A stretch of DNA of 64,000 nt from a virus, in the IMG/VR virus record IMGVR_UViG_3300043411_001575, positions 96,001-160,000 of that record. One strand, given 5' to 3'. The notes below the pieces were generated by a model. It searched no databases. It was not told the DNA's origin and was given only the letters and a program-made list of their open reading frames with translations. Shown one piece after another: positions 40,239-64,000 of this stretch (position 1 is the stretch's first letter; every line of letters starts with the position of its first letter). Made by a program: the position numbers and the translations under genes.

Positions 40239-40242
40239 TTTT

Positions 40243-40704: not shown

Positions 40705-40705
40705 T

Positions 40706-41407: not shown

Positions 41408-41427
41408 GGCTGTTATTTTTTTTAATA

Positions 41428-41682: not shown

Positions 41683-41769
41683 AATTATTGTATATTTTTT
41701 GTAAAAATAATGAATAATATTATTTCTTAAAGAATAATATTTGTAACAAAAAAATCATAAAATGTTGCG

Positions 41770-42336: not shown

Positions 42337-42343
42337 TTAAATT

Positions 42344-42766: not shown

Positions 42767-42803
42767 TTTTATTTATTTTTAATACAAATATAAATAATAT
42801 TTT

Positions 42804-44297
42804 TTAAAATTTAGTTATTGGGTCATTAACAAACCCGTCATCTATACCATAACAAGGTGGATAAGAAACACCAAGACCCTTACTTATTCCATTAGGAATA
42901 TTATTAATATATCTTATACCTAAATTAGAGCCTGCATTACTCAAATCAGTAATTATTAACAGTTGATTTCTATTTGTTATGGTACAATTACTTATTTTTA
43001 TGAATTTAGATATTTTTTCAAAATTATCAGTAAAAGAAATAATATAATTAGATGTAGATGTAGATGTTATTCTAGTTTTTATTTCAGCAGACCCACTAAA
43101 AAATTCATTCATTGTTAAAGCTCCACCTCCTGATACAAAAACTCTCTTAAATACAATTCTATTTATATTTATAAGAGTAGCTGTATTAACAGTAAAATCT
43201 ACATTTTTACCACTTACAGCTGCAAGCCTTTTTACTTCCATTGTGGCATTACTGAAAATAGTATTACTTGTTAATGTTGTATTACAGCCATTTTCAAAAA
43301 TAACATTACATCTTAGTTGTCCACCACCTGACCAAGTTCCTCTATCATAAAAAACAATAGTACCTGTACTTATATTTAATATGTTAGGTGCAACCAAATT
43401 TTTAGTATAAAAATAACCTGTTCCAGCATTTATTGCACCATTTGTTGAAAGTTGTATAGTATCTCTAACAATAACGTCACCATTTGGAATAAGAGTTACA
43501 CTCCCAGCAACTGCTCTAATACCATGTATTACAAGTCCATTTAATTCAAAAGTTGTTGTTCCAGTTCCTAAACGGAAAAAACTCCAGTCCATATTAACAA
43601 AACCACTTAAATATTTAAATGTTCTACCTGAATAATTGTAGAATTTTTCAGTAGTAACAAAAGTTCCATGTAGTAAAGTACAAGTTCCTGTTCCACAATC
43701 AATTGTAGTATCTAAACAAATACCTGCATTTTGTCCTGAACTTGCACCAATTGAGGTATTATCTCCTGTTATAATTACACCTGAAGTTCCTGTTGTTAAT
43801 ACATTAGTTCCATTATTTATAAATGTTGAATTATCTTCAATGTAAAAATTATTACCATTAATAACAGAAAGAGAACTTCTAACAATTCCGTTATTAATAT
43901 AAAAATCATCTCCTAGTGTACAGGTTGTGCTTGAACCAAATGCAATTGGAAAATTAATAACAAGTGCATTACTTGTTATTGTCATATTAGCATTAAAAAC
44001 AAAAGTATTTGATGTAGTACTAACAACACTCATTGTATTTGAAAAAATACAACTAGTTCCATTAATCTGTAAATTGAGAGTGGTGAATGTAAAAGTATTT
44101 GAATAACCTGTACAATCTAAATTTGCACAAACTTTGTTTGAAGTATCAATTGTACAATTACCACTATTAGTTGTAAAGAAAGCATTATCAGCAGTTGTTG
44201 GAACAGCACCATCAGCACCTCCACCATCTGTTAAACTCCAATTACTTGCAGTTCCCCAATTAACATTTCCTGTATTTCTAAAGTAATAATCAGCCAT
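42804..44297 (-). CDS. putative virion fibre / beta-helix protein
   Basis: NWGTASNWS..GAVPT N-terminus; T/N/G-rich. Confidence 0.6.
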   Translation of the reverse strand: MADYYFRNTGNVNWGTASNWSLTDGGGADGAVPTTADNAFFTTNSGNCTIDTSNKVCANLDCTGYSNTFTFTTLNLQINGTSCIFSNTMSVVSTTSNTFVFNANMTITSNALVINFPIAFGSSTTCTLGDDFYINNGIVRSSLSVINGNNFYIEDNSTFINNGTNVLTTGTSGVIITGDNTSIGASSGQNAGICLDTTIDCGTGTCTLLHGTFVTTEKFYNYSGRTFKYLSGFVNMDWSFFRLGTGTTTFELNGLVIHGIRAVAGSVTLIPNGDVIVRDTIQLSTNGAINAGTGYFYTKNLVAPNILNISTGTIVFYDRGTWSGGGQLRCNVIFENGCNTTLTSNTIFSNATMEVKRLAAVSGKNVDFTVNTATLININRIVFKRVFVSGGGALTMNEFFSGSAEIKTRITSTSTSNYIISFTDNFEKISKFIKISNCTITNRNQLLIITDLSNAGSNLGIRYINNIPNGISKGLGVSYPPCYGIDDGFVNDPITKF

Positions 44298-44719
44298 TAA
44301 TAATCATTCGCAAAAGCAATTCCATGATTTAAGTCTTGCGCCCCAGCGTAAACAGATTGACATATCCCGATTAATTGTCCTGACCTCATAATGATAGGTT
44401 GAGCAAAAGTAATAGTAACAGAAGAGCCAAGAACCGTGTTGCTCCTTGTTGCTGATGCCATTACACCTTGCCCAATTAACCTAAAGTTAGCCCCCGCAAC
44501 ATCAGACAAGAAAATATTTATCCTCATGGCAGAAGAGGCGGCAGGGGATGCTTGTGCATTGGTTATAGTTACTCCGTCAACTCTAGTTCCATCTGCGTTT
44601 GCCGTTACTAAAGTTACAATAGTTCCTGAGCCATCAGACGCTGTGTTTGCTGTTGTTCCAAGTGAAACAGGAAGCATGTTTCCTGAATCACAAAATATAG
44701 GTATAGTATTAGCTGCCAT
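44297..44719 (-). CDS. putative virion structural protein
   Basis: beta-rich, A/T/G-rich composition. Confidence 0.6.
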   Translation of the reverse strand: MAANTIPIFCDSGNMLPVSLGTTANTASDGSGTIVTLVTANADGTRVDGVTITNAQASPAASSAMRINIFLSDVAGANFRLIGQGVMASATRSNTVLGSSVTITFAQPIIMRSGQLIGICQSVYAGAQDLNHGIAFANDY

Positions 44720-44988
44720 TAGTTTTCAGAATTAGATAATTTTTCTATATAATCATTTAACATCGTAATTTCTTCCTCTATTTTAGGTACTAAAGAATCA
44801 ATAAAATCAGAAACTACTTTTTCATAAATAGGATTTTCGACCAATGTATTGAAAGTTACTGACTCTGTATTAGTTCTTATACTAATCCCTTTTACTTGTT
44901 TACCTTTTTGTAAAAGATAAGATTCCTTTGTCATTTTTAACTGAGAAATTTTATCAGTTAAAACTTCTATTTGTTCTTGTTTTGTCAT
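44719..44988 (-). CDS. hypothetical protein
   Basis: translationally coupled ORF. Confidence 0.6.
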   Translation of the reverse strand: MTKQEQIEVLTDKISQLKMTKESYLLQKGKQVKGISIRTNTESVTFNTLVENPIYEKVVSDFIDSLVPKIEEEITMLNDYIEKLSNSEN

Positions 44989-44990
44989 GG

Positions 44991-45617
44991 TTATATGAAT
45001 TGATAATAATTAAATAATCTATTTGAAACGGCTGTATTGTTTGATATTGCTTGTGAAACAAAAGCTGTTGTTGCTAACTTTGTTGAGTTATCATTTACTG
45101 CCTGAGTAGGAGCGGTTGGTGTACCTATAAAAGCAGGTGAATTTAACACCGCATAATTTGATATTATATAGTTTATTTGCCCTTGTGCCTTTTCCGACAC
45201 TTCTTGAAAATCATCCCCAACTACAATAGCTGTATTTGATGGGGCAAAAGGAGTTTTTATAACCGTACCACTAAATTCAATCCAAGTTAATCCATTATAA
45301 TAATTAAAAGATAATGTTGTTGTATTATAAATTAAAAGAGCATTTACGGGAGTAATAATAGCATCCCTTTGAATAGTTGTCATTCGTGGACTTAAAAAAC
45401 CTTGTGTAGTAGAGGTTAAGTCTAGTAAAGCAGAAGCATCAGGAGTAATAGTTCCTAAACCTGCTGAAATACCATTATCGAAAAACATACTGTTTCCAAT
45501 ATTTAATCCATCAGGAGTGAATTTACACAAATAATTTAGTGTACCACCACCTCCGATAGTACCTCCGCCACCACCTCCGCCTGCGCCACTAAATCCAAAT
45601 GGAGAATTTCCGAACAT
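44991..45617 (-). CDS. short fibre-like protein
   Basis: SPAFIGTPTAPT..NSTKLATTAFV phage fibre repeat; N-terminus shared with 45921-48521. Confidence 0.7.
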   Translation of the reverse strand: MFGNSPFGFSGAGGGGGGGTIGGGGTLNYLCKFTPDGLNIGNSMFFDNGISAGLGTITPDASALLDLTSTTQGFLSPRMTTIQRDAIITPVNALLIYNTTTLSFNYYNGLTWIEFSGTVIKTPFAPSNTAIVVGDDFQEVSEKAQGQINYIISNYAVLNSPAFIGTPTAPTQAVNDNSTKLATTAFVSQAISNNTAVSNRLFNYYQFI

Positions 45618-45628
45618 TGATTATTATT
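45375..45628. repeat. about 250 bp direct repeat, copy 1 (copy 2 at about 48279-48529)
   Basis: near-identical DNA encoding the shared N-terminus. Confidence 0.85.
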
Positions 45629-45659
45629 TTAAATTACTACTAAAAATATATTCCTAAAA

Positions 45660-45905
45660 TTAAGCAACAGGTGGATAAGTCGCTAAAATATAAGCATCAA
45701 CTTGTGTTTGTGTAACAGCCATAATGTTTGCTACATCCGCAACAGGACAAACTAAATTAAATATTGTTTGAGGTGTAACTAAATCCAAATATGTATTCCC
45801 CTCCACATAAAGTTCTGTATTTGCTTGATAAGTTACTGCTGTATTATCTTCGTTAAATCTTAATGAAGATTCTAATACTACTGTGTTTCTTGATTTTATT
45901 GTCAT
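45660..45905 (-). CDS. hypothetical protein
   Basis: ORF in late cluster. Confidence 0.6.
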   Translation of the reverse strand: MTIKSRNTVVLESSLRFNEDNTAVTYQANTELYVEGNTYLDLVTPQTIFNLVCPVADVANIMAVTQTQVDAYILATYPPVA

Positions 45906-45920
45906 GACTTTTTTATTATA

Positions 45921-48521
45921 TTAAACTTTTCTGCCTACTACTAAATCTCCATTTGCTAAAATATTGGCTGCGGTATCTACATATAAATCGCCACTAGATA
46001 ATCCAGCATTTCCTGTTTGTAAAGACATGTTTATAATTCCACCTGATTTAATAGACATTCTTTCAGAACCCGTTGTAACAAAAGCTAAATCATGCGCTGA
46101 TGTCGTTCCAAATAATGCTCTTTGACCTATTACTGCTTGAACTAAATTGGTTACGTTGTCAGAAACTAATGTGCCTATTTCACCATTTAGTATTTGAACG
46201 TGAAATTTATAAGCAGGTAAAGCAACTCCTACTCCAACAAACCCATCATTCCTTACATAAAGCAAAGGAGAGGGTGCAGAGTTATCTACTTTTAATGCGT
46301 AGTTTGATGATGTTTCATCAACTCCTTTAACTTGTAATTTAGCTGATGCAGAATCAACCCCTATACCAACAGTATTATTTACCATTGATAAAATAGAGGT
46401 TGCAGTATCTATTGTTCCATTATAAAACCTCCAATATCCTAAATCAGCGTTTATAAATTGAAACCCTGCTACTCCTGTACCTAAATATAGACTTCCTGTA
46501 TTATTAGCTCCATAAGCAGTAAAGGCATTTACCGCAGAACCTTTAACCCCCATTGTAATACCCGTATTTCCTCCCGATAACCATTCGGTATGAACCATAG
46601 CATTAGTGGCATTTGATTCAACTCTTGATAATACTTGATAAGCCCCACCCGTTGTGTAAACGTGTAGTTTATTTTGTGGAGTACTTGTTCCTATACCTAC
46701 ATTTCCACCATTTGCTTGTAATGATAAATTAAGTATAGTAGCATTAGTTGATAATGCTTGAATGTTAGGCACATTAGTTCCTCCTAATTGAAATGCTAAA
46801 GTAGAATTTGTTGCATTTGGCGTTAATGCTTCACTATCAGCAATCCATAATTGTCTGTTATTACCTGTGTTTACGCCAAGAAGCATAGATATACCACCTG
46901 TACTTGAAGCAATACCTAAAAAATCAGCACCACTAAGTTTAAGGTGTTCTTGTGTAAAAGAGCTTTCCTCAAGTTGTAGTTTAGCTGTTGGAGATGTTGT
47001 TCCAATGCCGACATTGCCAAACTCGTTAATAACCATTTTTTCAGTTGGTGTTCCTGCGGTAGTTGTAAAGAACTTCAAAAAACCATCTTCACTTCCATTA
47101 GTGTTATCAACAATTCCACCACTTATAACCGCATACGTTTTTTGAGAGCCAACTGAATTATTTAAGTCAAAATTAATTGCATAACCATAAGTTAAATTTG
47201 GCTCATTTCTATGTAGAGTAAAAGTATTTGGGCTTAATCTTGCAAGTGTAGAACTACCATGATACCAAGTAAAATCATAAGCATTACTATCTGCTCTAAA
47301 GAATAATTCTGTTTGACCTGCTCCATTATAAGAAACACCCAATCCACTTCTTCCTATTCCATTATTATAAATAACTAATTTAGGATTAGCCCCATTTACA
47401 TTTGAATATTGCCCCCCTAAGTCTAATGATATTGGTGATACAACAGAAACAAAAGTATTGTTACCCATATAAGCATTACCATCATTTCTAACATAGAATA
47501 AAGGAGAAGAAGCAGAGTTATCTACCTTTAATGCGTAGTTAGAATTTGTTGCATCCTCTCCTCTAATTTGTAATGTAGAAGAAGCTGCAAAATATGTTGC
47601 TCCAATACCAAAGTATTTATTCGGCTGCAAGAACATATTGAAATTATCACCAAAAAATGTTCCACTCGTAACAGCTCCATTATTTATTTTAAAAGAAATT
47701 GATGGATTTGAACCTCCATTACTTATCATATTTAGAGCAGCATTTCCTGCTCTCATAGTGAAATTATTGCCATTATATGTAGCAAAACTATTATCGTCAA
47801 TAGAAAATACTTCTCCAATAGTATTAAAATTAACAGATAGTCCTTTTGCTCCTGTACTAACAGTATTTTGAAGTATATCTAATTTAGCAGAAGGAGTTTT
47901 ACCAACACCTAAATTACCTGCTGTACTAAGAGTCATGGTAGTCGAAGTACCATTATAGAATGTCAAATCATTGGCATAATCAAAAACAGAAGCCATAAAA
48001 ATAGTTCCTATTCTGTGAGTTGCATCTCCAATATTTGAGCCTGTTGTAACAGGAAGATAATCATTAGTTGAGTAATACCAAGTAGCATCTCCAATTACGC
48101 TGTTACCACCATCAGTCCAAAGAACAGCACGATTAGTCGTTCCACTTCCTGAAACATCACCGCCTGTTGAAGTGTCAATTTGAATCCAAGTTGAACCATT
48201 CCAATAATTGAAAAATGATGATGAGGTATTATAAATAAACAATCCATTAACGGGAGCTACAATTGCATCACGCTCCACAGTTGTCATTCGTGGACTTAAA
48301 AAACCTTGTGTAGTAGAGGTTAAGTCTAGTAAAGCAGAAGCATCAGGAGTAATAGTTCCTAAACCTGCTGAAATACCATTATCGAAAAACATACTGTTTC
48401 CAATATTTAATCCATCAGGAGTGAATTTACACAAATAATTTAGTGTACCACCACCTCCGATAGTACCTCCGCCTCCACCTCCGCCTGCGCCACTAAATCC
48501 AAATGATGTATTTCCAAACAT
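45921..48521 (-). CDS. long fibre / receptor-binding-like protein
   Basis: repeated GNVGIGTTSP-type motifs; duplicated NYALKVDNSAxSPLxYVRNDG. Confidence 0.72.
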   Translation of the reverse strand: MFGNTSFGFSGAGGGGGGGTIGGGGTLNYLCKFTPDGLNIGNSMFFDNGISAGLGTITPDASALLDLTSTTQGFLSPRMTTVERDAIVAPVNGLFIYNTSSSFFNYWNGSTWIQIDTSTGGDVSGSGTTNRAVLWTDGGNSVIGDATWYYSTNDYLPVTTGSNIGDATHRIGTIFMASVFDYANDLTFYNGTSTTMTLSTAGNLGVGKTPSAKLDILQNTVSTGAKGLSVNFNTIGEVFSIDDNSFATYNGNNFTMRAGNAALNMISNGGSNPSISFKINNGAVTSGTFFGDNFNMFLQPNKYFGIGATYFAASSTLQIRGEDATNSNYALKVDNSASSPLFYVRNDGNAYMGNNTFVSVVSPISLDLGGQYSNVNGANPKLVIYNNGIGRSGLGVSYNGAGQTELFFRADSNAYDFTWYHGSSTLARLSPNTFTLHRNEPNLTYGYAINFDLNNSVGSQKTYAVISGGIVDNTNGSEDGFLKFFTTTAGTPTEKMVINEFGNVGIGTTSPTAKLQLEESSFTQEHLKLSGADFLGIASSTGGISMLLGVNTGNNRQLWIADSEALTPNATNSTLAFQLGGTNVPNIQALSTNATILNLSLQANGGNVGIGTSTPQNKLHVYTTGGAYQVLSRVESNATNAMVHTEWLSGGNTGITMGVKGSAVNAFTAYGANNTGSLYLGTGVAGFQFINADLGYWRFYNGTIDTATSILSMVNNTVGIGVDSASAKLQVKGVDETSSNYALKVDNSAPSPLLYVRNDGFVGVGVALPAYKFHVQILNGEIGTLVSDNVTNLVQAVIGQRALFGTTSAHDLAFVTTGSERMSIKSGGIINMSLQTGNAGLSSGDLYVDTAANILANGDLVVGRKV

Positions 48522-48538
48522 TGATTATTGTTTTATAA

Positions 48539-48802
48539 TTATCTACCAACTATAATTAAAGCCTCACCTGCTGATGCATCAATAACATATCCATCAATAG
48601 GAAATTGAAATGATACATTAAGAGGAGTGCCACTAGATAGAGTTATAGGGTCACTTGTTCTCGCTCCTAAACTTAAACTACCACTAACAGTTACAGTTCC
48701 GCTAACTAGTAAAACAGATACACTAGTAACACCCATACTTGCTACTATTGTCAAAGTATCTGCTGATAATACGTATGTACCTACGTTTTCTGTGAATGCC
48801 AT
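48539..48802 (-). CDS. hypothetical structural protein
   Basis: beta-rich ORF. Confidence 0.6.
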   Translation of the reverse strand: MAFTENVGTYVLSADTLTIVASMGVTSVSVLLVSGTVTVSGSLSLGARTSDPITLSSGTPLNVSFQFPIDGYVIDASAGEALIIVGR

Positions 48803-48813
48803 TTTATTTTATT

Positions 48814-49203
48814 TTAACTAATTAATTCTTCTATTTTAACCTCTCTAATTGGAGTGTCATTATTATACAAATATAATCTTGGATTAAAATCATCGCTTGT
48901 AGTATAAAACCTTCCATTCACAGTGTTTTCATCAATATTCTCTTTTTTAGCAAAATTAGCTAACGCATTACCTAAATACGTATTAACTAAAGGTGCTTGA
49001 ATTGGATTAAGACCAAGTAAATCTTTTAAACTCACTTCACTAACCGAATCCATTTTTTGCATTACATCACATTTTACTGTGCTTGCAATAAATCCTTTTT
49101 TTCGAGATATACGAACACGAACTTCTTTTGTTGGTATTCCATTACTCTCAGCGCAACTTTTTAAAGCTGACTGAATTTTACTTACAATTTCTGCTGTTTC
49201 CAT
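48814..49203 (-). CDS. hypothetical protein
   Basis: ORF. Confidence 0.65.
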   Translation of the reverse strand: METAEIVSKIQSALKSCAESNGIPTKEVRVRISRKKGFIASTVKCDVMQKMDSVSEVSLKDLLGLNPIQAPLVNTYLGNALANFAKKENIDENTVNGRFYTTSDDFNPRLYLYNNDTPIREVKIEELIS

Positions 49204-49279
49204 TGTGTTTTTATTTTTTTGCTGTTAAGGTTCAAAAATAATAAAAATAATGGTTACTTATAAAAAAAAGACACTCAAC

Positions 49280-49810
49280 TTATGTAACATTTTCAACATC
49301 TTTATTTGTGCTACTAGTTACATCAGCTAAAGTAAAAGGAAGTTCAAATGGATATTTTTTCATATTTACAATTCCTGCCTTTATGTTCAATTTTCCTTTT
49401 ATAAGGATTTTAACATTTTTCTGATTATTAAGTAAATCTGAAATATTAGCTATACCTGCTTTTACTACATCTTTTGGGTCTAAATTAACATAGAATGGTA
49501 TTTTAGAAACTGAGTTAGACTTAATCTTAACATCCTCATCGTTTGTTATTTTAGAAACAAATTTTCCATTTACAAATACATCATAATTTTGTCCTGATAT
49601 AATTACACTTAAATCACCTTTATTATCTACATTATAGAATAAAGTAAAGCTAATTTTATCTAAAGCTACCTTTAGATTTTTAACTCCACCCATTGCCCAT
49701 TTAGCATTATAAATGTAGTCGAATTGTTTTTTTAGATAAAGTCCTACTACTCCTAAAACAAGTGTAACTCCACCTGCTATTCCCCATTTTTGTCCTTTTG
49801 TTAGTGTCAT
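49280..49810 (-). CDS. membrane-anchored LEA_2-like protein
   Basis: N-terminal TM; VDN..YDVFVNGKFV..IKSNSVSKIPF pattern. Confidence 0.6.
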   Translation of the reverse strand: MTLTKGQKWGIAGGVTLVLGVVGLYLKKQFDYIYNAKWAMGGVKNLKVALDKISFTLFYNVDNKGDLSVIISGQNYDVFVNGKFVSKITNDEDVKIKSNSVSKIPFYVNLDPKDVVKAGIANISDLLNNQKNVKILIKGKLNIKAGIVNMKKYPFELPFTLADVTSSTNKDVENVT

Positions 49811-49839
49811 TTTGTTATTATTTTTAATACTTATTTATT

Positions 49840-50505
49840 TTAAATCAAGATGTCTAGTATCGAATTAACTCCAATTAGCTTCTTTATATAGTTTGCTGTT
49901 TCAGTTGGAACTAACTTGATTAATTCATTTGTTGAACCTTTGAATGGAATTATTTTCTTTGATGATTTACTAAATCTACCACCGTTATAAACAGCAATCA
50001 CCTTATCTAATCTAACCTTACCATTTTCAACAAATTCATCACATAATTGCTTCAGCAATATGCTCCCCACCAAAATGCTAAAACTTGGATTTAAAAGGTC
50101 TGATTTCGTTATAAATGTCTTACCTAATGATTTCTGTTTAGGCTTAACTTTTTCAATTATTGAATACCTATTACCTAAATATTTTTTCAGTAAGTCTTGC
50201 TCAGGTTTATCTAATCTACCTGCACCTTTTTCGAAAATAAGAGCATCCGAAGCCGTTGCGGGTGAAAGTTGCATGATTCCTATTGCGTATGGTGATTGAG
50301 CGTCCCACTTACCTGCCGACTCCACGAACATAACACCTTCAATTAATTCTGAAGGTAAGCCAACTATACTTCCAATATAATTAATTGTTTTCCCATACTT
50401 AGGTCTAATGAAATTTACTATTTTTTCTTCATTAGCTTTAGCGGAATCATCATCATAAAATGATTGTGATATAGCAGGTATTTTTATATTAAGCGTAGAA
50501 GCCAT
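49840..50505 (-). CDS. lytic transglycosylase (SLT family)
   Basis: VESAG, AIGIMQL, YNGG, ETANYI. Confidence 0.85.
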   Translation of the reverse strand: MASTLNIKIPAISQSFYDDDSAKANEEKIVNFIRPKYGKTINYIGSIVGLPSELIEGVMFVESAGKWDAQSPYAIGIMQLSPATASDALIFEKGAGRLDKPEQDLLKKYLGNRYSIIEKVKPKQKSLGKTFITKSDLLNPSFSILVGSILLKQLCDEFVENGKVRLDKVIAVYNGGRFSKSSKKIIPFKGSTNELIKLVPTETANYIKKLIGVNSILDILI

Positions 50506-50519
50506 TTTGTTTTATTTTT

Positions 50520-50756
50520 TTAATCTTCTCTTGTAAAAACTATTTTATTTTTTTTTGAATCAGCGTCAACTTTACCTTCTCCAACTAAATCATCTTCTAC
50601 TGCAAAATACCCTAATGCTGCTCCTGCTATTAAACCAATAACTGAAGAAACAATATTGTTTGCGGAAGGTCTCCTAAAAATAAATTTAGAAATAGAGTAT
50701 CCAACAAGAGTTCCTGTTGCTCCAAATCCTAATGCGTATTTAACTTTTTTATTCAT
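50520..50756 (-). CDS. small membrane protein
   Basis: two Gly-rich hydrophobic segments. Confidence 0.6.
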   Translation of the reverse strand: MNKKVKYALGFGATGTLVGYSISKFIFRRPSANNIVSSVIGLIAGAALGYFAVEDDLVGEGKVDADSKKNKIVFTRED

Positions 50757-50758
50757 GA

Positions 50759-51193
50759 TTAGCTTAATTTTTTATTTAATAATAAAATTGAGGCTGAAAT
50801 TAACACTACTCCTAATGAAGCTATAGCTATGTATTTACCTAGTTTGTTTTCTTTTTTAATAACTCTTTTCGAAACAATTGGTACATCAGCTAATATAGTT
50901 TGAGCATCTTCTTTTAGAGTTTTTTTAATGGCTCTTATAGGCATACCCATACCTGTTAAATCAATAGGAACTACAGATTTCGCAGGGAAAATATTTTTAT
51001 TATATCCAACCATAGTGATGGTTATATAATCAGAATCTTGAACTCCATCAAGAATCCATTTTCCTTTTTCATCTGACTGAGTATTTTTAGAACCTGATAA
51101 TGGCTTTCCATTTGCATCAGATGTGTAGATGGTAGCAAACTCAATTGGCTTGTTACTTGAATCTACTAATTGACCCATTACTTTATATCCCAT
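50759..51193 (-). CDS. carboxypeptidase-regulatory-like domain protein with C-terminal TM
   Basis: GQLVDS..PIEFATI..TQSDEKG..VGY. Confidence 0.65.
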   Translation of the reverse strand: MGYKVMGQLVDSSNKPIEFATIYTSDANGKPLSGSKNTQSDEKGKWILDGVQDSDYITITMVGYNKNIFPAKSVVPIDLTGMGMPIRAIKKTLKEDAQTILADVPIVSKRVIKKENKLGKYIAIASLGVVLISASILLLNKKLS

Positions 51194-51513
51194 TATTTTA
51201 ATTTATTAAGAAATTCTCTTACTTTTATTTTCTCTGATGCAGTTAGAGACTTTTCTGAACTTTCGCCTTTGCTAAGCATCGACATAAATTCATTATGACT
51301 TTTTCTGTTGAATTTATCTAAATATTTTTTCTTAACTAAAGCTAGTCTATCAACAGAAATATCAAAAATATCCTGTCCTTTATTTTTAGACAAACTTACA
51401 AGCGCATCAAAATCTGAATCAGAAAGTTTATTATCTTTTTTATAGATGTATATTCCAACACCTATACCTAATGCAGCTAATACAGTAACCCCTAATAATA
51501 ATCCTTTTTTCAT
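51193..51513 (-). CDS. small membrane-anchored protein
   Basis: N-terminal TM. Confidence 0.65.
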   Translation of the reverse strand: MKKGLLLGVTVLAALGIGVGIYIYKKDNKLSDSDFDALVSLSKNKGQDIFDISVDRLALVKKKYLDKFNRKSHNEFMSMLSKGESSEKSLTASEKIKVREFLNKLK

Positions 51514-55589: not shown

Positions 55590-56381
55590 TTAAATAATTT
55601 TATAGTAAGGCTTTAAAAAACACTTACGTAATTTTAGAGTTCCGACAACTTCTTCGTACTTGGCTTTTCTTTGAAGTATTTGCTCAAAGTGCGATTCATG
55701 AATTTCGTTGCCGACTAAATGTTGTCTTAAAATACTTTCCTGATTATTACTATTATCATAGTCAGGTAAAATCAAATCTCCTGATGGATTAGGCTCTTCA
55801 GTTTTAACTTGTTCAGTTGATTGAACCTGAGTATTAACTAAATTTTCCTGACCAACAGAAGGTACATCTTGAGTAGAAGGAACAGTTCTAATTGGAGCTG
55901 TTGTTTTAAAATACTCTTGACTTAAAAGTTCGCTTCCTTGCAGGCTGCCTCCATCTGATTTCTTCTCATAATTTTCAATATTTTGAAGTTCAAAAAGAGG
56001 CATACCTTTATTGGAATCGGTAAAGAATAAAGTATAATCTTGAGACCCTTCAATTTTTATATTTTCGGGACTAGCTTTATCTGTTAGAATTCCTTGTTGC
56101 TTAAGAACATCAATGATTTTATCATTTTTAGTTCCAAAAGGAAATTCAATAAGTTTTTCAGAAGAAAAAATTTGATTTACATAAAATCCACTATCATTGC
56201 TTCCATGAATGTCATAAGTTACTAACCTACAACTTACATTTTCAACAACATTACCTCCATCAGCAAGTTTTTTACTACCACTAACTTCTTTTTTTGAATT
56301 TTTCATAAATCGATTACCTGCGGGTTTAACAACCTGCTTGTCATTTATTTTTTTCTTCTTACTATCCTTATTTTCAGACAT
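55590..56381 (-). CDS. modular protein with DGG linkers
   Basis: LADGG, KSDGG; C-terminus similar to that of 56729-61699. Confidence 0.7.
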   Translation of the reverse strand: MSENKDSKKKKINDKQVVKPAGNRFMKNSKKEVSGSKKLADGGNVVENVSCRLVTYDIHGSNDSGFYVNQIFSSEKLIEFPFGTKNDKIIDVLKQQGILTDKASPENIKIEGSQDYTLFFTDSNKGMPLFELQNIENYEKKSDGGSLQGSELLSQEYFKTTAPIRTVPSTQDVPSVGQENLVNTQVQSTEQVKTEEPNPSGDLILPDYDNSNNQESILRQHLVGNEIHESHFEQILQRKAKYEEVVGTLKLRKCFLKPYYKII

Positions 56382-56384
56382 AGA

Positions 56385-56684
56385 TTACTTACCTGCCTCT
56401 ACGTTAGCAACTGTTTTAACTGCTTCTGCTGCTGCTTTAACTGCATCTGCGGTTTTAGCTGTAGCTTCTGCTGCCTTAACTTCAGGGTTAACTTGTTTAA
56501 GTGTAGTGTCAGCTTTTTTACCTCCTAAGAAGTAACCCGCTAAAGCACCTGCAACTAATCCTGCACCTGCAAAAATTAACATGTTTTTCATGTCTTTTTT
56601 CTTCATAAAATAAGCGATTGCTGCTCCTGAAGCTGTACCGATACCTCCCCCGATAAGCATTGTTTTCATGTCCATTTTTTTCAT
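56385..56684 (-). CDS. small membrane protein
   Basis: two glycine-zipper-like segments; similar to 39230-39505. Confidence 0.65.
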   Translation of the reverse strand: MKKMDMKTMLIGGGIGTASGAAIAYFMKKKDMKNMLIFAGAGLVAGALAGYFLGGKKADTTLKQVNPEVKAAEATAKTADAVKAAAEAVKTVANVEAGK

Positions 56685-56728
56685 TTTTCTTTTTTTTTTA
56701 AATTATTAATTTGATTTATATACAGGGT

Positions 56729-59700
56729 TTAATCTGCCACTTTAAAGTATGGTCTTAAAAAGCACTTGCGCACCTTAAATCCAACCACGTTTTCTTCAAA
56801 CTTAGGTTTACGACCTAAGTAAGAAGTCAATTTATCTACGCTCACTTCTTTTCCTGAAGAAAGAGATTTAAGTATTGAACCTTCGATTCCTACTAAATCA
56901 AATTCTCCAACAGAACCTCCATCTTCAAACTCTTTTACATCTTTAATATCAAGACCTTTTTCTTTAGCTACACTCTTTAATTTACTTTGTATTTTAGAAG
57001 TAGTTGGAGAAAACTTTTTATCTAATATTTTAACAACATCTCCTTTACGAGTTGCTATTAATGTATAGTAGTTTCTAAGTAAAATTTCTTTATCATATTC
57101 ATTGTAATGAGTAGATAAGTTTTTAGTTGATACTTCTTCGGTTGAAGTAAGGAAACTTTCGATTACATCTTCATTTTTACCAACTCGTCCACCTTTAGCA
57201 AATTTATAAGTAGCAGCCTGATTGAACATACTTAAAAATTCACTTGCTGCGGATGTTTTACCTCCACTATTTCTTTTTCCACCAAAAGAGTTTTTAAATT
57301 CATTTTTATATTTTGAATCTAAAACCTTATCCAAATGGTTTATGATGTTTTTCTTTAGTTCAGGTTTTGGGCATTCACAGTCTTCCAATATACTTTTGAA
57401 TTTCTCAATGTTTTCTTTTGATGCTTCTTTATCAGAAATAGAAAGTAACTTATCCATTTTTTCATTTCCTTTCATATCACTTGATAATTCGGATAAACCA
57501 TCAAACCAAGAGTCGGTATCCTCATTGAATGAAGAAGATATTTTACCACCTTTAGCATAAGTACCTGCTCTATCAAAAATAACATAACCCTGTTCAAGCA
57601 TAGTATCAATAAATGAATCAATCATGTACCTTTCATGGTAATACAATTCAGAATCATCATGACCTTCATCAGTTAAATCTCCGTTATCATCATAATAGAA
57701 TCCATCAGTAATAGCAGGAGCTTCAGTTAATCCAAAACCTTGTGCGCCAATATCATCAAAATACATAAGTTCAGAATTCCCTCTTACATCATCAAATAAT
57801 TCTGACATGATATAATCATCATTTCTGTCATCATCACGCATTTCTAAAACTTCTGCTCTTCCATCTTCATCTAATGTAATTTTCAAATTACCATTAGGTG
57901 TAATATCAAGGCTAATGTATCTTCCTGAATGTAAATGTTTAGACAAATCTAATTTACCACCTTCTTTAAGAATAGGATTTTTAGTTGTTCTAACTTCAAA
58001 CCAACCTTCTTGATTCTTTAAAGCTTCAGCATTTTTATTTATAGCCTCATTCATTTCTTTAGTATCTCTACCATTCATAGTTAATGATGATTTTTTAAAT
58101 ACTCTACTTGATGGACTTTCTTTATATTCAATACCAAAAATAAATCTTTCACTAATACCACCGCCATTTTTCATTTCTTTATTTCCTTTAACTATTTCTT
58201 GTAATAATTTTAAAATATTATCATAAGTTTTAGGCATCTCGTACCCATTCATTTCATCCCATATTTTTACTCTTACTTTATAATCAAAATTATTATCTTT
58301 TTCAAAATAGTAAATTAAATCTTTTAAATCCCATCGGTGTTTTTTAACTGCTTTAGTCATATACTCAGCAATTTTTTCTAAATCTTCAGAACTTGTAATT
58401 TTTAAATTAGATTCTTCTCCAACTCCACCGCCTTTAGCAAAGTTTTCATTTACCATAACACTAGCACTATCAAACGTACTAGCAAAATCTTCTGCTTCTA
58501 TTTCATTATCAAAATATTTTTCAATGTTTTGAGTTTTATAATTATAAACATAGTAAGGCTTTTCTGATTCAACATCACCGCCATTTTTCATTTCGTTATT
58601 TAAAAGCTTATCGTAATCAACATACTCTTTGTATTTCAAAGTATCAATATTTTCTTTGAGTGTCTTTTTATAGTTCTCAGCAAACTTCTCAATCGCTTTT
58701 AACACAGCACCTTCTTCTTTAGTAGGGGTTCTAAAAGGAATCTTAACTGATTTCATAGCTAAGTATTGTTCCTTTGGGTCATTCATATTTGGATTTCTAT
58801 AAATAGATTGACCACCATTACCTCCAAATATTTGAGGATGTAATTCAAGTGAAGATAAGTCTAAAGTAAGACTAACAGCTTGTGGGTATTGACCTCTTAC
58901 ATTATTAATAGCGTAATCAGAAGCGGCAATAACGATACCTAAATTTTTACCTTCTGAGAAGAAGTTTTTATATGTCCAAATGTTATGATAAAAATTAGGA
59001 ACTACTTTATTTAAAATAGCTTCAATTTTTGATTTTAATTCTTGTTCTTTTTCAGTAAGTTCTCCGCCTTCTGCAAACTTCTTTGTTCTATTAACATCAG
59101 AACGATTTTCTCTGTTTTCATAGTAAACATTACCTTCAGCAGAAACACGTTTTCCACCATGTAAAGCTTTCACTGATTTATCTCTTGAAATTGCTAACTT
59201 AGAACGTTTTAAACTTCCACCTTTTTTATATTGTCCACTATTAACATGTGCTTCTAAAACTCGTTTTGTGTGGTCAGTTAAATCAGAATAATTTTTATCT
59301 TTTTGAACAATCCTAGAATAACCTAAATTATTTTCTAATCTATCATCATCTAAAAGTTCACTATGGTCTAATAAAAAGTGACTTCTTTGAGCCTCACTCC
59401 AATTATTCCAAATATCTTCAGAACTATGACCATCATATTTATTTTTTAAACTAATTTTTCCACCTTTTTTGAAAACACCTAATTGATGAATCATTCCATC
59501 ATCTCCAACTTCAAGGTCAACACTTTTCATTTCACGAGCAGCGTTTTCTAATTTTTCTTCAACATCTTTATCGTAACCTCTATCAAAGAATCCTGCACCA
59601 TGACCATTACGTGTAAGCCATATATCATGACCTAGTTGCTCATCAGATGAACCACTTGCTTCAATAGCATCGTAGTTATCTTCAATGAACATTTTAACGT

Positions 59701-61699
59701 CCTTGTACATTCTTTCTCTTGTAGCAGGAGCAATATCAGAAACAGAGTAATTAGCATCTAATGGCTCATCAGTATCCATATCAGTAGAAGACCATAAAGC
59801 GGCAATCATGTAGTTATCTAAAACTTCATTTATTCTATCTTCAGAAATCTCTCCACCTTTAGCGTATTCTTTTTTACTTTCAAAGTCAATAAAATCAAAA
59901 TCAACATACATAGTTCTGCCATTAGAAGAAGTTACTTCATATCCATATGATAATACTTCTTCAATTTTAGCACTCATTCCTGATGGCTTTATCTTTATAG
60001 TATCTCCAACTTTTTTATCACCAACCCCACCGCCATTAGCGTATATCAACCTATCAACCCTATCTTTTAGGGGTAAATCTATACCGTATTTTTCCACCTT
60101 TGACTTTATAGTTGGATTTTCACCTAACGGCTCGTAATAAGCTGACCATTCAGTATCCAATCCCATTTCAAGTATATGAAGTGCTAATCTCTTAACCTCA
60201 TCCGACTTTCTTGTAGATATAATTTTGAATAACCTATACTTACCTGAACTTCTATCTAAAAGAGATTCTTCTTTTGCTTGAAAATCAAATCCGTTTTTAT
60301 TTAAAAAATTCACTATTGCTGAATCTGTATATTCACCTTTTGAAGAAATATTAATACCTCTAAAATTATGAACACCTCCATTAAAACGAATTGCTTTTAC
60401 AAGTTCATTCCAATTTGATATAGTTCTAATTTTACCAACTCCACCACCTTTAGCGTATGTTTTTTTGCCATCTTCAGTATTTATATTATGTCCTCTTCTT
60501 TGTTTTGCTCTTAAATAAAATCCTCTATCATCTTGAAGATAACCCTTAAATCCGTTCCAAATATTTTGACCTACACCAACAGGTTCAAAAACTCCAAATA
60601 AACCATCTTGAGGAGTTGAATCATAACCATTATAACCATCTACAATAGATGCCTCCCCAACATATTTATTTCCCTTAAGAAAAACATTTTCAGGTAATGT
60701 TATTTTATTATAATTATCAATAACATCTTTATATTTAATGTTTTTAATTTTACCAACTCCACCACCTTTAGCGTAATCCTCATCTTCTTCATCTATAACG
60801 TATCCATTTTCTAAAGCATCTGAATAAAAATGAGGGTATTCTAAATATTCTTTGTAATAGAAATCCATTACTTCTCCAATATTTTTTAATTTAAGAATTT
60901 CTTTTTTTATTTTTTTAGCATCTTTTTCCCATAAATCATCATAAGTTTTATCAAAAGAATGTTTGTAGTCAGCTTGATTAAATCTCCAAGCTTTATTACC
61001 TCCACTTAGCCAATAAACAATTGTTTTTTCATCAGATTTTTTTAATTGTTTTGGAGTAATAGCTATCTCACGAATTTTAGGATTTTTTTTGTATTTACTA
61101 TTTATCATTATAGCTACTGCTTCACCAATATCATCAGTACTATATCTCCAACCTGTCGAATTATTAGAGTCAAAATCAACATCTAAAGTACCATCACTAC
61201 GTCTTTCAATTAATAATGGATGTTCAAGAAACTCTTGCTTAATAGAACCACCTTTAGCGAACTCTTCTTCTTCATTTAATTCACGTTCTTGCCAAAAATT
61301 ATCGTATTGTTTTTCAGAAACATTTGGAACATTATAACTTGAATCAGAACTAATAATTGTCATATCACCATTAGTAGACCAAGTAGCTGAAATCAAATCT
61401 TTACCTACTGATTTAGATTCAGTATTTAAGTATTTTTGAATTCTTTTTGTTGGTGCTTCGTAATTCCAATATTTATAAGGGATAGAAACGCAATATGAAT
61501 CTTCAAACTTTTCTTTAGCTTCTTCAAGAGTTAATTCATCTGTAGAACCACCTTTAGCGAATCTCTTTGTTCTGTTGACATCAGAACGATTTTCACGATA
61601 TTCATAATAAGTATTACCATCAGCAGATGTACGTTTACCTGCGTGTTGAGCCTTAATATTTTTGTCTCTTGCTAAAGCTAATTTTGTTCTTCTGTTCAT
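56729..61699 (-). CDS. large modular protein (1656 aa) with repeated phi-x-x-GG linkers
   Basis: about 16 FAKGG/YAKGG/MKNGG-type motifs separating unrelated modules. Confidence 0.85.
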   Translation of the reverse strand: MNRRTKLALARDKNIKAQHAGKRTSADGNTYYEYRENRSDVNRTKRFAKGGSTDELTLEEAKEKFEDSYCVSIPYKYWNYEAPTKRIQKYLNTESKSVGKDLISATWSTNGDMTIISSDSSYNVPNVSEKQYDNFWQERELNEEEEFAKGGSIKQEFLEHPLLIERRSDGTLDVDFDSNNSTGWRYSTDDIGEAVAIMINSKYKKNPKIREIAITPKQLKKSDEKTIVYWLSGGNKAWRFNQADYKHSFDKTYDDLWEKDAKKIKKEILKLKNIGEVMDFYYKEYLEYPHFYSDALENGYVIDEEDEDYAKGGGVGKIKNIKYKDVIDNYNKITLPENVFLKGNKYVGEASIVDGYNGYDSTPQDGLFGVFEPVGVGQNIWNGFKGYLQDDRGFYLRAKQRRGHNINTEDGKKTYAKGGGVGKIRTISNWNELVKAIRFNGGVHNFRGINISSKGEYTDSAIVNFLNKNGFDFQAKEESLLDRSSGKYRLFKIISTRKSDEVKRLALHILEMGLDTEWSAYYEPLGENPTIKSKVEKYGIDLPLKDRVDRLIYANGGGVGDKKVGDTIKIKPSGMSAKIEEVLSYGYEVTSSNGRTMYVDFDFIDFESKKEYAKGGEISEDRINEVLDNYMIAALWSSTDMDTDEPLDANYSVSDIAPATRERMYKDVKMFIEDNYDAIEASGSSDEQLGHDIWLTRNGHGAGFFDRGYDKDVEEKLENAAREMKSVDLEVGDDGMIHQLGVFKKGGKISLKNKYDGHSSEDIWNNWSEAQRSHFLLDHSELLDDDRLENNLGYSRIVQKDKNYSDLTDHTKRVLEAHVNSGQYKKGGSLKRSKLAISRDKSVKALHGGKRVSAEGNVYYENRENRSDVNRTKKFAEGGELTEKEQELKSKIEAILNKVVPNFYHNIWTYKNFFSEGKNLGIVIAASDYAINNVRGQYPQAVSLTLDLSSLELHPQIFGGNGGQSIYRNPNMNDPKEQYLAMKSVKIPFRTPTKEEGAVLKAIEKFAENYKKTLKENIDTLKYKEYVDYDKLLNNEMKNGGDVESEKPYYVYNYKTQNIEKYFDNEIEAEDFASTFDSASVMVNENFAKGGGVGEESNLKITSSEDLEKIAEYMTKAVKKHRWDLKDLIYYFEKDNNFDYKVRVKIWDEMNGYEMPKTYDNILKLLQEIVKGNKEMKNGGGISERFIFGIEYKESPSSRVFKKSSLTMNGRDTKEMNEAINKNAEALKNQEGWFEVRTTKNPILKEGGKLDLSKHLHSGRYISLDITPNGNLKITLDEDGRAEVLEMRDDDRNDDYIMSELFDDVRGNSELMYFDDIGAQGFGLTEAPAITDGFYYDDNGDLTDEGHDDSELYYHERYMIDSFIDTMLEQGYVIFDRAGTYAKGGKISSSFNEDTDSWFDGLSELSSDMKGNEKMDKLLSISDKEASKENIEKFKSILEDCECPKPELKKNIINHLDKVLDSKYKNEFKNSFGGKRNSGGKTSAASEFLSMFNQAATYKFAKGGRVGKNEDVIESFLTSTEEVSTKNLSTHYNEYDKEILLRNYYTLIATRKGDVVKILDKKFSPTTSKIQSKLKSVAKEKGLDIKDVKEFEDGGSVGEFDLVGIEGSILKSLSSGKEVSVDKLTSYLGRKPKFEENVVGFKVRKCFLRPYFKVAD

Positions 61700-61722
61700 C
61701 TTGAGTGTCTTTTTTTATTTAA

Positions 61723-62226
61723 TTAAATAGCTACGTTTAAACCTACTGATGGCATTTTATAATCTACACCATTAGCTCCGCCTTTGAAGTAAATCATAAT
61801 AGTACCTTTGCTATCTTTAGTTGCTTTTGTTATTCTACCTAAGAATTTATCTTTTGTAGTTTTGAATGCTTCTTTACCTGCTAAATCATACACTTTTAAA
61901 CCATCTATTTTAGCGGAAATACTTTTTCCATTTGCGCCATCAGTATTCTCTGATAAATAATCAATCAAAGTAACTAATTTAGTTGGCTTGTAAGCAACTC
62001 CTAAATTACCTGAACCTGTAGATGTTCGAGATGGTTTTACGTTAGAACTTGGACTAATATCACTAGGAATATCAGAGCCACTTTCAGGATTACTTTCCTT
62101 ACTTGAATCACCTCCTGTATCAGTATTATCAGGCTTGTTCTTTCTGTAAGAATAAATTGCTATACCTGCTGCAATAGCTAATAAGCTTCCGCCTATCAAT
62201 AATACTTTTTTTAATTGAGGTGTCAT
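61723..62226 (-). CDS. membrane-anchored protein
   Basis: N-terminal TM, S/P-rich linker. Confidence 0.65.
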   Translation of the reverse strand: MTPQLKKVLLIGGSLLAIAAGIAIYSYRKNKPDNTDTGGDSSKESNPESGSDIPSDISPSSNVKPSRTSTGSGNLGVAYKPTKLVTLIDYLSENTDGANGKSISAKIDGLKVYDLAGKEAFKTTKDKFLGRITKATKDSKGTIMIYFKGGANGVDYKMPSVGLNVAI

Positions 62227-62288
62227 TTGAAAATTTGCTTTAAAAAATATTTGTAAAATTAATGAATATTAATCTTTTATTTTAAACA

Positions 62289-62330
62289 ATATCTGTAACA
62301 CCTTTTGAGAATGTTACAGATATTTTTTTT
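62289..62330. terminator. putative terminator hairpin
   Basis: ATATCTGTAACA..TGTTACAGATAT beside a T run, at a gene end. Confidence 0.55.
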
Positions 62331-64000
62331 TAGTATGCTCTTTTATTTTTAGGGTTTTTATCTGAATGGTCACGACGATTCTCCTGATAAATCATTTTTC
62401 TCGCTTTCACATCTCCTTCTTCATATGCTTTAATATCTTTTTGGGTCACAGGTTTGTAATATTCTTTATCTGTTTTTTTAATTTTACGCATCATTCCTGT
62501 AGACTTATCTAAAATCTTACGATAACGGTATCCAACAAGTCGGGATTGTACTGACGTGTCTCTTGAACCATAAGGAACATCTCTTTCATATTGTGCGCCT
62601 CTTTGTTTGATAGCTCCACCTTTTTTGTAGTCATCCTCACCTGCCCAATCTGAATAACCAACGTTAAAGGCAATAGGGTCATTCTTTCTTAACCAAAGTC
62701 CATAAGTATTTAAATGCTTATAAGGAACTCTTCCTCCGTATTCAGGATGGTCATGTTCAGGAACTCCTATTTCGTTTAGAAGCTCAACGTATTTTGCTTT
62801 TGTTTTTTTTAAGCTTCCACCTTTAGCAAATTCTTCATCATCGAATTCAGGAACTCCTGCTGCTTCTAATAATTCAACATCACCTTTATCAATATATTTT
62901 GATAATGATTGAAGTTCAATCAATTCACCTTGACTAATTCGTTCTTCACGAAGTTCTCCTCTCAAATATTCTAATCGTTCTTTAATTTCTTCCGTATTAT
63001 CAAGTCCACCACCATCAGCGTATTCATTAAAATATTTTATCAATTCGTTTTCTTCTTCATCCGTTAAAGAAAGTTGTCCACTTGAATAAAGATTATTTAA
63101 TTCTTGTTTTGATGGCTTATAGCCATACTTTTTTTCATATTTTCCAATAATATTTTTAATTAAAATACTTTCACCAACTCCACCACCATCAGCGTATTCA
63201 TCATTTATTTTTAATTTTTCTCCTATAAAATACTCTTTACCATTATACACTACAACAAAATTACCTTTTTTTAATTCTTTTCGTATAAATGGCTTTGTTC
63301 TTTTTATAAATTCTTCTACTTCTTCTCCCGTTTCAAATGTCATTCCACCCTGCGAACTATAAATATCTTTATATCTAAATTTTTCTTCTTCCACTTCATC
63401 ATCATCTTCAAATTCAGGAACTCCTGCTGCTTCTAATAATTCCACATCACCTTTATCAATATATTTTGATAATGATTGAAGTTCAATCAATTCACCTTGA
63501 CTAATTCGCTCTGCACGAAGTTCTTTTCTAAGATACTCTAATCTTTTTTTAATTTTTTTCGTATCACTAACTCCTCCACCTTTAGCAAATTCTTCATCAT
63601 TTTCGTATTCCCAAAAACCAAAGTCAGAACCATTTCCTTCGTGTGAACCAAAAGAAGTTCCTTCAGGAGCAATGTTATTTAATAAATCGAAAATATCTTC
63701 ATTTAAAATGTATGTAGCGGTTTCTTCAGACTCACCAACGAAATCACCATCTTCATCTTTTTCTAAAGCATTAACTTCTTCCTGAAGATTATTTACTTTT
63801 TCTTCAATACCAAGTTCTACTTTTACAGATTGTAAAAAATCCATGAAAGACTCTATAAGATGTTCTGACTTCAATGTACCACTTGATAGAGATTTGCCTA
63901 TCATACTTGATGACAATTCACCGCCATTAGCCATTTTACCTTTACTACTTCTTGCTTCATATTCTTCTTGGTATCTAGGCAAGTTATGTGGTTCATTAGG
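62330..64000 (-). CDS. modular protein with phi-x-x-GG linkers (5' end beyond window)
   Basis: Frame is open to the window edge; MANGG, FAKGG, YADGG, YKKGG linkers; about 45 aa internal duplication (about 62844-62974 and 63411-63543). Confidence 0.8.
   Translation of the reverse strand, partial: PNEPHNLPRYQEEYEARSSKGKMANGGELSSSMIGKSLSSGTLKSEHLIESFMDFLQSVKVELGIEEKVNNLQEEVNALEKDEDGDFVGESEETATYILNEDIFDLLNNIAPEGTSFGSHEGNGSDFGFWEYENDEEFAKGGGVSDTKKIKKRLEYLRKELRAERISQGELIELQSLSKYIDKGDVELLEAAGVPEFEDDDEVEEEKFRYKDIYSSQGGMTFETGEEVEEFIKRTKPFIRKELKKGNFVVVYNGKEYFIGEKLKINDEYADGGGVGESILIKNIIGKYEKKYGYKPSKQELNNLYSSGQLSLTDEEENELIKYFNEYADGGGLDNTEEIKERLEYLRGELREERISQGELIELQSLSKYIDKGDVELLEAAGVPEFDDEEFAKGGSLKKTKAKYVELLNEIGVPEHDHPEYGGRVPYKHLNTYGLWLRKNDPIAFNVGYSDWAGEDDYKKGGAIKQRGAQYERDVPYGSRDTSVQSRLVGYRYRKILDKSTGMMRKIKKTDKEYYKPVTQKDIKAYEEGDVKARKMIYQENRRDHSDKNPKNKRAY

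Follow-up and report, generated by a model that had tools for sequence, protein, structure and literature searches.

A conserved Gly-Gly joint between the small modules of giant proteins in an uncultured Bacteroidota-type phage

Phages encode very large proteins in which numerous small, unrelated domains are combined and mosaicism is extensive; these have been described as polyvalent proteins, and a zincin-type metallopeptidase has been proposed as their processing enzyme (Iyer et al. 2017, J Bacteriol, PMC5512222). In our study, a window of 64,000 nucleotides was analysed that corresponds to positions 96001-160000 of the IMG/VR virus contig IMGVR_UViG_3300043411_001575 (169,658 bp; the whole contig is termed G000 below). 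The contig encodes two giant proteins, A and B, and two smaller ones, C and D, in which a short Gly-Gly peptide, here called the joint, was detected between or next to modules. Judging from their sequences, all four are polyvalent proteins, that is, small, independently folding modules, otherwise encoded by separate phage genes, which are strung together. Relatives of A and B carry two members of the network of Iyer et al., the anti-restriction protein ArdA and the polyvalent-protein domain LPD11, which suggests that A and B, too, are polyvalent proteins in the sense of these authors; in A and B themselves, no domain is recognised by Pfam. The kind of protein is thus already known, and what is new is the conserved eight-residue joint: the words 'linker' and 'glycine' are absent from the text of Iyer et al. 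2017 (PMC5512222), so that neither the joint nor its absence at termini nor its role as an exchange point is described there. A further difference is that the candidate zincin of this phage is a separate M48-like gene (P0266) instead of an embedded MPTase domain, MPTase-PolyVal (PF18818) being absent. Literature searches on Gly-Gly joints and Gly-Gly polyproteins of phages, including the joint pentapeptides, yielded no relevant paper.

Virion precursors of adenovirus and African swine fever virus (ASFV) contain (M/L/I)-x-G-G-x or G-G-x sites that are cut by clan CE proteases, with several virion proteins released per precursor. The joints of A and B share with these sites the Gly-Gly junction and an upstream hydrophobic residue. 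However, this residue lies one position farther from Gly-Gly than in the sites of adenain, PLpro and deubiquitinases, no clan CE protease was detected, the host is bacterial, and the modules look effector-like and not structural. In the phages T4 (IPI-III/Alt; gp21), phiKZ, 201phi2-1 and SPN3US (ejection proteins; gp175/gp245), proteins with an N-terminal targeting segment are loaded into the head, cut at sites ending in Glu (L/I-x-E or S/A/G-x-E), in most substrates once or a few times, and injected (PMC10052503, PMC7411985). Head loading through an N-terminal segment, a short cut consensus and injection with the DNA would be common to A and B. Unlike these substrates, A and B carry 16-17 Gly-Gly joints each and do not match the Glu-ending consensus, and no S77/S78 protease was found. 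In the Bacteroidota phage crAss001, large cargo proteins, gp45 among them, are stored in the capsid and the tail, from which they are ejected before the DNA (Bayfield et al. 2023, PMC10172136). Its gp45 contains 20 GG pairs, including FAEGG-like sites, and 1 strict site in 842 residues; it shows no sequence homology to A or B, and the dense, regular joint pattern is missing.

Giant open reading frame (ORF) A (P0001; 56729..61699, minus strand) encodes 1656 residues, arranged in 17 modules of 50-162 residues that are separated by 16 joints of the type phi-x-x-G-G, phi being a hydrophobic residue. The joints span 56915..61561 on the minus strand and are located, in the order of translation, at 61547-61561, 61247-61261, 60761-60775, 60443-60457, 60029-60043, 59852-59866, 59459-59473, 59216-59230, 59063-59077, 58577-58591, 58427-58441, 58160-58174, 57956-57970, 57545-57559, 57188-57202 and 56915-56929. 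Giant ORF B (P0079; minus strand, genome positions 158330-164149) comprises 18 modules and 1939 residues and is therefore much bigger than the window shows: it reaches the window-equivalent position 68149, and 556 C-terminal residues (62330..64000, minus strand) are visible, with six joints in the span 62615..63934 (63920-63934, 63575-63589, 63182-63196, 63008-63022, 62816-62830 and 62615-62629, minus strand). Among all these modules, only a basic tag, described below, and a few duplicated modules resemble one another.

Counting [FYML][AKEG..][KNDE]GG and using 2000 residue shuffles as background, we found 16 copies of the motif in A and 16-17 in B (six within the window), compared to shuffle means of 0.21 and 0.39, respectively, and a shuffle maximum of 3-4. 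These counts confirm an earlier note on this window, which had listed about 16 linkers in A and six in the edge ORF, now recognised as the end of B. The strictest form of the motif matched 15 times in A and 14 times in B; the remaining ~297 ORFs hold a single match, in ORF C, the next gene upstream of B, which contains one joint. A looser form gave 8 matches across the remaining 46.8 k residues, corresponding to an about 50-fold enrichment in A and B. Of the two sites that had been proposed for ORF D (P0003; 55590..56381, minus strand, 263 residues, basic N-terminus), LADGG (56253-56267) fits the motif, whereas the weaker KSDGG (55947-55961) is without the hydrophobic residue. The module size given in the same note, 50-170 residues, is correct for A; in B, however, the segment B661-1062 (module B8) extends over 402 residues between joints. 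It holds weaker joints and had neither a PDB sequence match nor a match in the ESM Atlas.

A listing of every GG in A and B gives E/K-[FYM]-A-K-G-G-[G/S/E/K]-[V/I/L], and the eight-residue consensus is K-[YFM]-A-[KD]-G-G-x-[VIL] within a connector of about 10-12 residues. A word-index search provided a family set of 117 metagenomic homologs (75 large and 42 shorter), nearly all of which show a motif density of 5-13 per 1000 residues. Of the 1910 GG sites in this set, 68% have Y, F or M at position -3, 44% have Ala at -2 and 50% have K or D at -1; two positions past GG, 72% have V, I, L, T or M.

The joints coincide with the borders of modules. When A and B were compared with their homologs, 26-64% of the BLAST segment ends (49-64% of the C-terminal ends) were found within 3-6 residues of a joint, versus 7-13% expected at random. 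The Pfam domains recognised in the relatives, ArdA, LPD11 and DUF7659, fall between joints as well: ArdA begins 8 residues past a joint, DUF7659 makes up exactly one inter-joint segment, and LPD11 lies within one segment; the homologs P0046 and P0064 are those that hold ArdA and LPD11 in this position. A structure model of A558-880, based on 16 aligned sequences, predicts three folded units, a small beta unit, a helical unit (predicted local distance difference test score, pLDDT, 75-88) and a mixed unit, with pLDDT <50 at each joint. A Foldseek search with this model gave weak SH3/Tudor-like matches only, for module A6.

Stand-alone counterparts were detected for the modules A7 and A12 and for the first module of C, as the earlier note had suggested looking for. 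Module A7 (A617-742; 59474..59851, minus strand) belongs to the phrog_1915 family, contains the motif WLTRNGHGAGFFDRGY and is bordered by YAKGG (59852-59866) and FKKGG (59459-59473). Its free versions (P0092, P0095 and P0109; 123-130 residues) align from about 4 residues past the upstream GG and stop 1-4 residues short of the hydrophobic position in the following joint. The same limits apply to P0093, the stand-alone counterpart of A12, and for the first module of C a free-standing paralog is encoded in the same genome (window 23828-24154). No stand-alone homolog crossing a joint was found; P0118, which had appeared to do so, was rejected as its alignment to A7 is spuriously extended. In addition, the phrog_1915 module (WLTRNGHGAGF[FW]DRGY) occurs as a stand-alone protein of ~125 residues in 378 cultured phage records, including phages of Mycobacterium, Escherichia, Gordonia, Caulobacter and others. 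Five independent lines of evidence thus agree that the motif is a joint between modules and belongs to neither neighbour. The claim that the linkers separate unrelated modules is borne out by the BLAST ends, the Pfam domains, the structure model and the stand-alone homologs.

The N-terminus of A is a basic tag of 45 residues (61562..61699, minus strand; DK.IKA.H.GKR.S..GN.YYE.R.NRSD.NR), which is followed by the first joint, FAKGG (61547-61561). An internal copy, A829-874 (59078..59215, minus strand), is flanked by YKKGG (59216-59230) and FAEGG (59063-59077). Taken together with its joint as a 51-residue module, the tag of A (A1) is 98% identical to that of B (B1) and 71% identical to A829-879, and the two copies of the RLEYLR module are 81% identical, so both duplications described in the earlier note are real. 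An exhaustive profile-free search detected the 45-residue tag in 173 protein clusters. It can stand at the N-terminus or inside a protein, it forms tandem arrays of two or three copies, and it often makes up the very C-terminus of proteins that are otherwise unrelated. It also forms stand-alone proteins of 50-100 residues and has no Pfam family. Among 98 non-terminal copies of the tag, 89 are succeeded by phi-x-x-GG, whereas proteins with a C-terminal copy (n=32) end just ahead of the expected GG position. The Gly-Gly motif hence follows the tag only where another module comes next, which indicates that the joint serves solely as a connector. In the structure model the tag is predicted to be disordered; from its charge and terminal positions we would guess at a DNA-binding or address function.

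With the tag at the N-terminus and either KCFLRPYY or a second tag-like module at the C-terminus, constant bookends enclose a variable interior. The C-terminal bookend module of A (A1596-1656; 56732..56914, minus strand; terminal VRKCFLRPYFKVAD) is kept at the C-termini of the jointed proteins of relatives, and the KCFLRPYY ending recurs in this position in the IMG/VR relatives L030-L032. As noted earlier, A and D have this RKCFLxPY module in common (39% identity, E 2e-11), the KCFLKPYY module of D being located at 55593-55772. More distant relatives use a second C-terminal ending, GESWxDAxKR. The two alternative endings, KCF[LM][RK]PYY and GESWxDAxKR, were observed in L030-L032, G001, G015, G023 and G024 and may represent two classes of anchoring or targeting module.

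To follow the exchange of modules, the proteins of close relatives were cut at the joints and the pieces were matched to the modules of A and B. Whole modules are inserted, deleted, replaced or moved at joints, and shared modules within one protein range from 51% to 100% identity. In three relatives, for instance, module A12 is part of the B-type protein. The close relatives retain the N-terminal tag and the final two modules, and the interior varies. Module order thus differs between relatives, with breakpoints at joints, in line with the module shuffling that the earlier note had connected with a conserved linker DNA. This DNA could be verified, too: the genome contains 12 copies of the 11-mer CCACCTTTAGC, 9 of them within the window (chance expectation ~0.08 occurrences), all on a single strand and confined to A and B. 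The DNA of the joints is more uniform than codon usage predicts. For the Ala of the joint, the ratio GCT:GCA is 19:1, compared to 151:107 for Ala before AAA/AAT elsewhere in the genome. The first Gly is encoded by GGC in 27-60% of the joints versus a genome background of 4-13%, and GGA is avoided (A/B and L030-L032); this bias could stem from a shared origin of the joints or from avoidance of GGAGG. Overall, the uniformity of the joint DNA exceeds what the peptide needs and is in line with joints that recombine with each other or that have a common origin. Nevertheless, lineages differ in their DNA, with AAA, AAT or GAT at position -1 and GCT, GAA or AAA at position -2, and the hydrophobic residue two positions past Gly-Gly is encoded by several different codons. 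As phi..GG.[VIL] is kept while the codons and residues at -2 and -1 differ between lineages, the primary constraint is on the peptide.

We propose that the strings are cut at their joints, a reading to which we give slightly less than an even chance. The strings would be expressed late, in an operon with the transglycosylase and fibre genes, loaded into the particle via their bookends and delivered along with the DNA, and a phage protease reading the joint peptide would then release separate small proteins. The uniform joint DNA would additionally act as microhomology for the in-frame exchange of modules. In favour of cutting, the eight-residue joint is kept across lineages without common modules, the modules are similar to proteins whose usual mode of action is independent, and the tags in tandem arrays have the appearance of small-peptide precursors. 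Moreover, the conserved zinc-protease-like gene P0266 just upstream of the jointed genes suggests that the joints may be cutting sites, and its putative M48-like zinc metallopeptidase, the only candidate seen, might be the cutting enzyme.

P0266 (genome 166303-167172, minus strand, 6.3 kb past the window end) encodes 289 residues; it lies upstream of the jointed genes, at a distance of ~1 kb from C and 2.2 kb from B. It was picked from the few genes common to G000 and G001, a distant 52-kb relative with three jointed proteins. The family has more than 420 members of ~275 residues and carries no Pfam or PHROG annotation. P0266 contains LLHEYSHKW, and H208, E209, H212, N216, E226 and D230, comprising an HExxH motif and a downstream Glu, are invariant in 32 family sequences. 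The structure model (pLDDT 92.6, predicted template modelling score 0.90) predicts a beta-sandwich of the carbohydrate-binding-module or jelly-roll type in residues 1-108 (Z about 7) and a helical C-terminal domain. In a full scan of 48,161 chains, the best match overall of this C-terminal domain was BepA (Z 8.1, root-mean-square deviation 3.6, 116 aligned residues; a Z near 8 may be chance for helical domains), and 3c37 (Z 6.5), ZMPSTE24 (Z 6.4) and Ste24 (Z 6.2) were further M48 matches. Foldseek with the same model gave nothing clear, the M48 matches coming from the full structural scan only. The Pfam Peptidase_M48 profile had no match in P0266 and scored the homolog of G015 with 12.6 bits, below the cut-off of 20.3; the M56 profile gave a weak match (E 0.058) in 2 of 32 family members. 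The invariant HExxH...E and the weak M48 and M56 profile matches strengthen the fold match, and the model is suggestive of an M48-like zincin fold. P0266 shares HExxH and the downstream Glu with the M48 peptidases BepA, HtpX and Ste24/ZMPSTE24, and its model suggests the helical fold of their catalytic domain, but it has the beta-sandwich where these have TPR or membrane domains.

The order P0266, a 205-residue gene and jointed proteins is kept in G000 and four IMG/VR contigs (L030-L033). In each of four complete relatives, a P0266 homolog is present and jointed proteins are encoded at other sites of the genome, e.g. a 1371-residue protein with 14 joints in G015 and a 1094-residue protein with 9 joints in G023. 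P0266 and jointed proteins co-occur in 10 of 10 genomes checked. The family is clade-wide, however, and also present outside genomes rich in joints. Any core gene of the clade would show such co-occurrence, and the functional link between P0266 and the joints is therefore a lead and not a result. IMG/VR scans with A, P0006, P0069 and P0067 detected no relatives, a scan with the 51-residue tag found it in unrelated contexts only, and a 21-base pattern of the joint DNA matched 16 loci in IMG/VR, with L021 (G001) as the sole relative.

Several observations weigh against cutting and delivery as proposed. Neither a known head protease nor a Gly-Gly protease was found in G000 or the relatives profiled. 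Because the head genes are absent from the contig, packaging is deduced from gene order only. We know of no preference of M48 peptidases for Gly-Gly, and although 79 IMG/VR contigs carry a P0266 homolog, no joint-dense protein is seen within 10 kb in 71 of them, which means that P0266 may have a general role unrelated to the joints. Furthermore, no member of the clade was found among cultured phages. Megablast of a 24-kb region against these gave no match, and with tblastn A retrieved only stand-alone relatives of A7, B one 44-residue stretch and P0266 nothing. Finally, N4 vRNAP, ArdC and TraC1 are polyvalent proteins that travel uncut (Iyer et al. 2017, PMC5512222), and gp45 of crAss001 was modelled as a single chain from capsid to tail, with cleavage unmentioned (PMC10172136). 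The argument from gp45 is weak, since this protein has few similar sites and no homology to A or B.

These precedents are at the same time arguments for an uncut cargo, in which the modules resemble beads on a string and the Gly-Gly connector acts as a flexible hinge or docking handle. In this form, which we regard as a realistic possibility although we lean against it, the chain would be stored, threaded module by module through portal and tail, perhaps anchored by its bookends, and the modules would act tethered. The conserved bookends around a variable interior agree with an uncut chain, as do the joints, predicted by the model to be short disordered connectors between small folded units, and the failure to find a Gly-Gly-specific protease. 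A passive hinge, however, leaves unexplained why an aromatic residue or Met, Ala, Lys or Asp and a beta-branched residue are kept around Gly-Gly across lineages with unrelated modules; the tandem arrays of the 45-residue tag, joined by the motif, resemble precursors of small peptides, and ArdA-type modules normally act as free dimers. A motif kept mainly as DNA microhomology for in-frame exchange, with a peptide that has no reader, would account for the breakpoints at joints, for the confinement of the 11-mer to A and B and for joint codons (the GCT of the Ala, and GGC in four genomes) that are more uniform than codon or codon-pair usage predicts. We consider this very unlikely as the sole explanation: between lineages the DNA differs while phi..GG.[VIL] persists, and this, together with the varied codons of the hydrophobic residue two past Gly-Gly, argues for selection acting on the peptide.

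The protease favoured in the earlier note, a clan CE cysteine protease (adenain, ASFV pS273R or Ulp1-type) cutting after Gly-Gly, is highly improbable. It would fit the invariant Gly-Gly and the upstream hydrophobic residue, and as the contig is ~82% complete its gene could lie in the missing part. However, the search of G000 for Ulp1 (PF02902, Peptidase_C48) and adenain (PF00770, C5) gave no match at E<=1, G001 has no match to PF00770 either, the hydrophobic residue, mostly aromatic, is at P5 and not at P4, and the other genes seen resemble those of bacterial viruses (HNH, RtcB and NA37 in G000, a weak split terminase in G001). A more far-reaching form of the cut-polyprotein proposal, a dedicated system of joint peptide and protease, appears unlikely to us. 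Here, the P0266 family would read K-[YFM]-A-[KD]-G-G-x-[VIL] and free dozens of effectors from injected polyproteins throughout a clade of aquatic Bacteroidota-type viruses (50-170 kb or larger; capsid, portal and terminase genes escaped the standard profiles that were used), the uniform joint also being the site of in-frame exchange.

Hallmark genes were searched by profile in G000 and in the relatives G001 and G004-G028, 7 of which were rated at least 90% complete. Profiles of Terminase_6N, TerL_ATPase, HK97-type capsid and protein-primed polymerase found nothing in G000 or in 16-25 relatives; the capsid profile of nucleocytoplasmic large DNA viruses had no match either, but as its control was silent as well this result is uninformative. 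The prohead protease PF04586 was detected neither in G000 nor in 25 relatives and PF03420 neither in G000 nor in G001, the head module not being on G000. Since this module probably lies in the missing part of the contig, the absence of a head protease means little. The sole signal for a C39 peptidase (15 bits, cut-off 22) was rejected; it came from a 247-residue ORF (genome 45121-45864, minus strand) that also carries a weak HNH motif. PHROG searches with ~50 larger ORFs of G000 and relatives identified fibres, glycosyltransferases, methyltransferases, an AAA ATPase and the weak split terminase of G001.

G000 has a G+C content of 31% and no terminal repeat, its completeness being estimated by CheckV; this IMG/VR record of an uncultured, Bacteroidota-type phage contains tail-fibre-like, SLT, HNH and RtcB genes. 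The jointed genes sit within one long minus-strand block of G000. In the direction of transcription, this block comprises two conserved genes of unknown function, P0266, the 205-residue gene, a 149-residue gene, C (334 residues), B, a membrane protein of 167 residues, A, a glycine-zipper protein of 99 residues, D, a run of small ORFs, an SLT transglycosylase and tail-fibre-like genes. The 167-residue protein between B and A (P0267; 61723..62226, minus strand) is a single-pass membrane protein whose homolog in G001, the distant relative, shows 31% identity, and the 99-residue glycine-zipper or YtxH-like small membrane protein between A and D (56385..56684, minus strand) has weak holin-like matches.

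Further observations concern other parts of these genomes. About 20 consecutive ORFs of 250-290 residues each are located on the plus strand at 85-21400 of the window, and a transposase of 389 residues (phrog_506, E 6e-108) at 29757-30926, also on the plus strand. At genome 50142-51194, on the minus strand, G000 encodes a homolog of NA37, a bacterial nucleoid-associated protein of 37 kDa (E 1e-32). Among the complete relatives, G015 and G023 contain single ORFs of 3772 residues (40053-51371) and 5338 residues (52323-68339), respectively, the former without a meaningful PHROG match. The complete genome G024 (IMGVR_UViG_3300013005_000037, L109-L112; 72.5 kb) is bounded by a perfect inverted terminal repeat of 123 bp, and three relatives belong to the IMG/VR class "inverted terminal repeats". 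Such repeats are unusual in tailed phages.

Should the strings remain uncut, their joint is still a natural and portable linker from which multi-domain proteins can be built. With the P0266 family, moreover, a viral clade that is poorly understood has a conserved core gene that is protease-like and has no annotation. If the joints are cut sites, they would provide a sequence rule by which hundreds of giant, unannotated metagenomic proteins could be split into testable units. The two genes A and B would then supply ~35 small proteins at infection that are exchangeable module by module, and thereby form a compact, evolvable store of counter-defence proteins.

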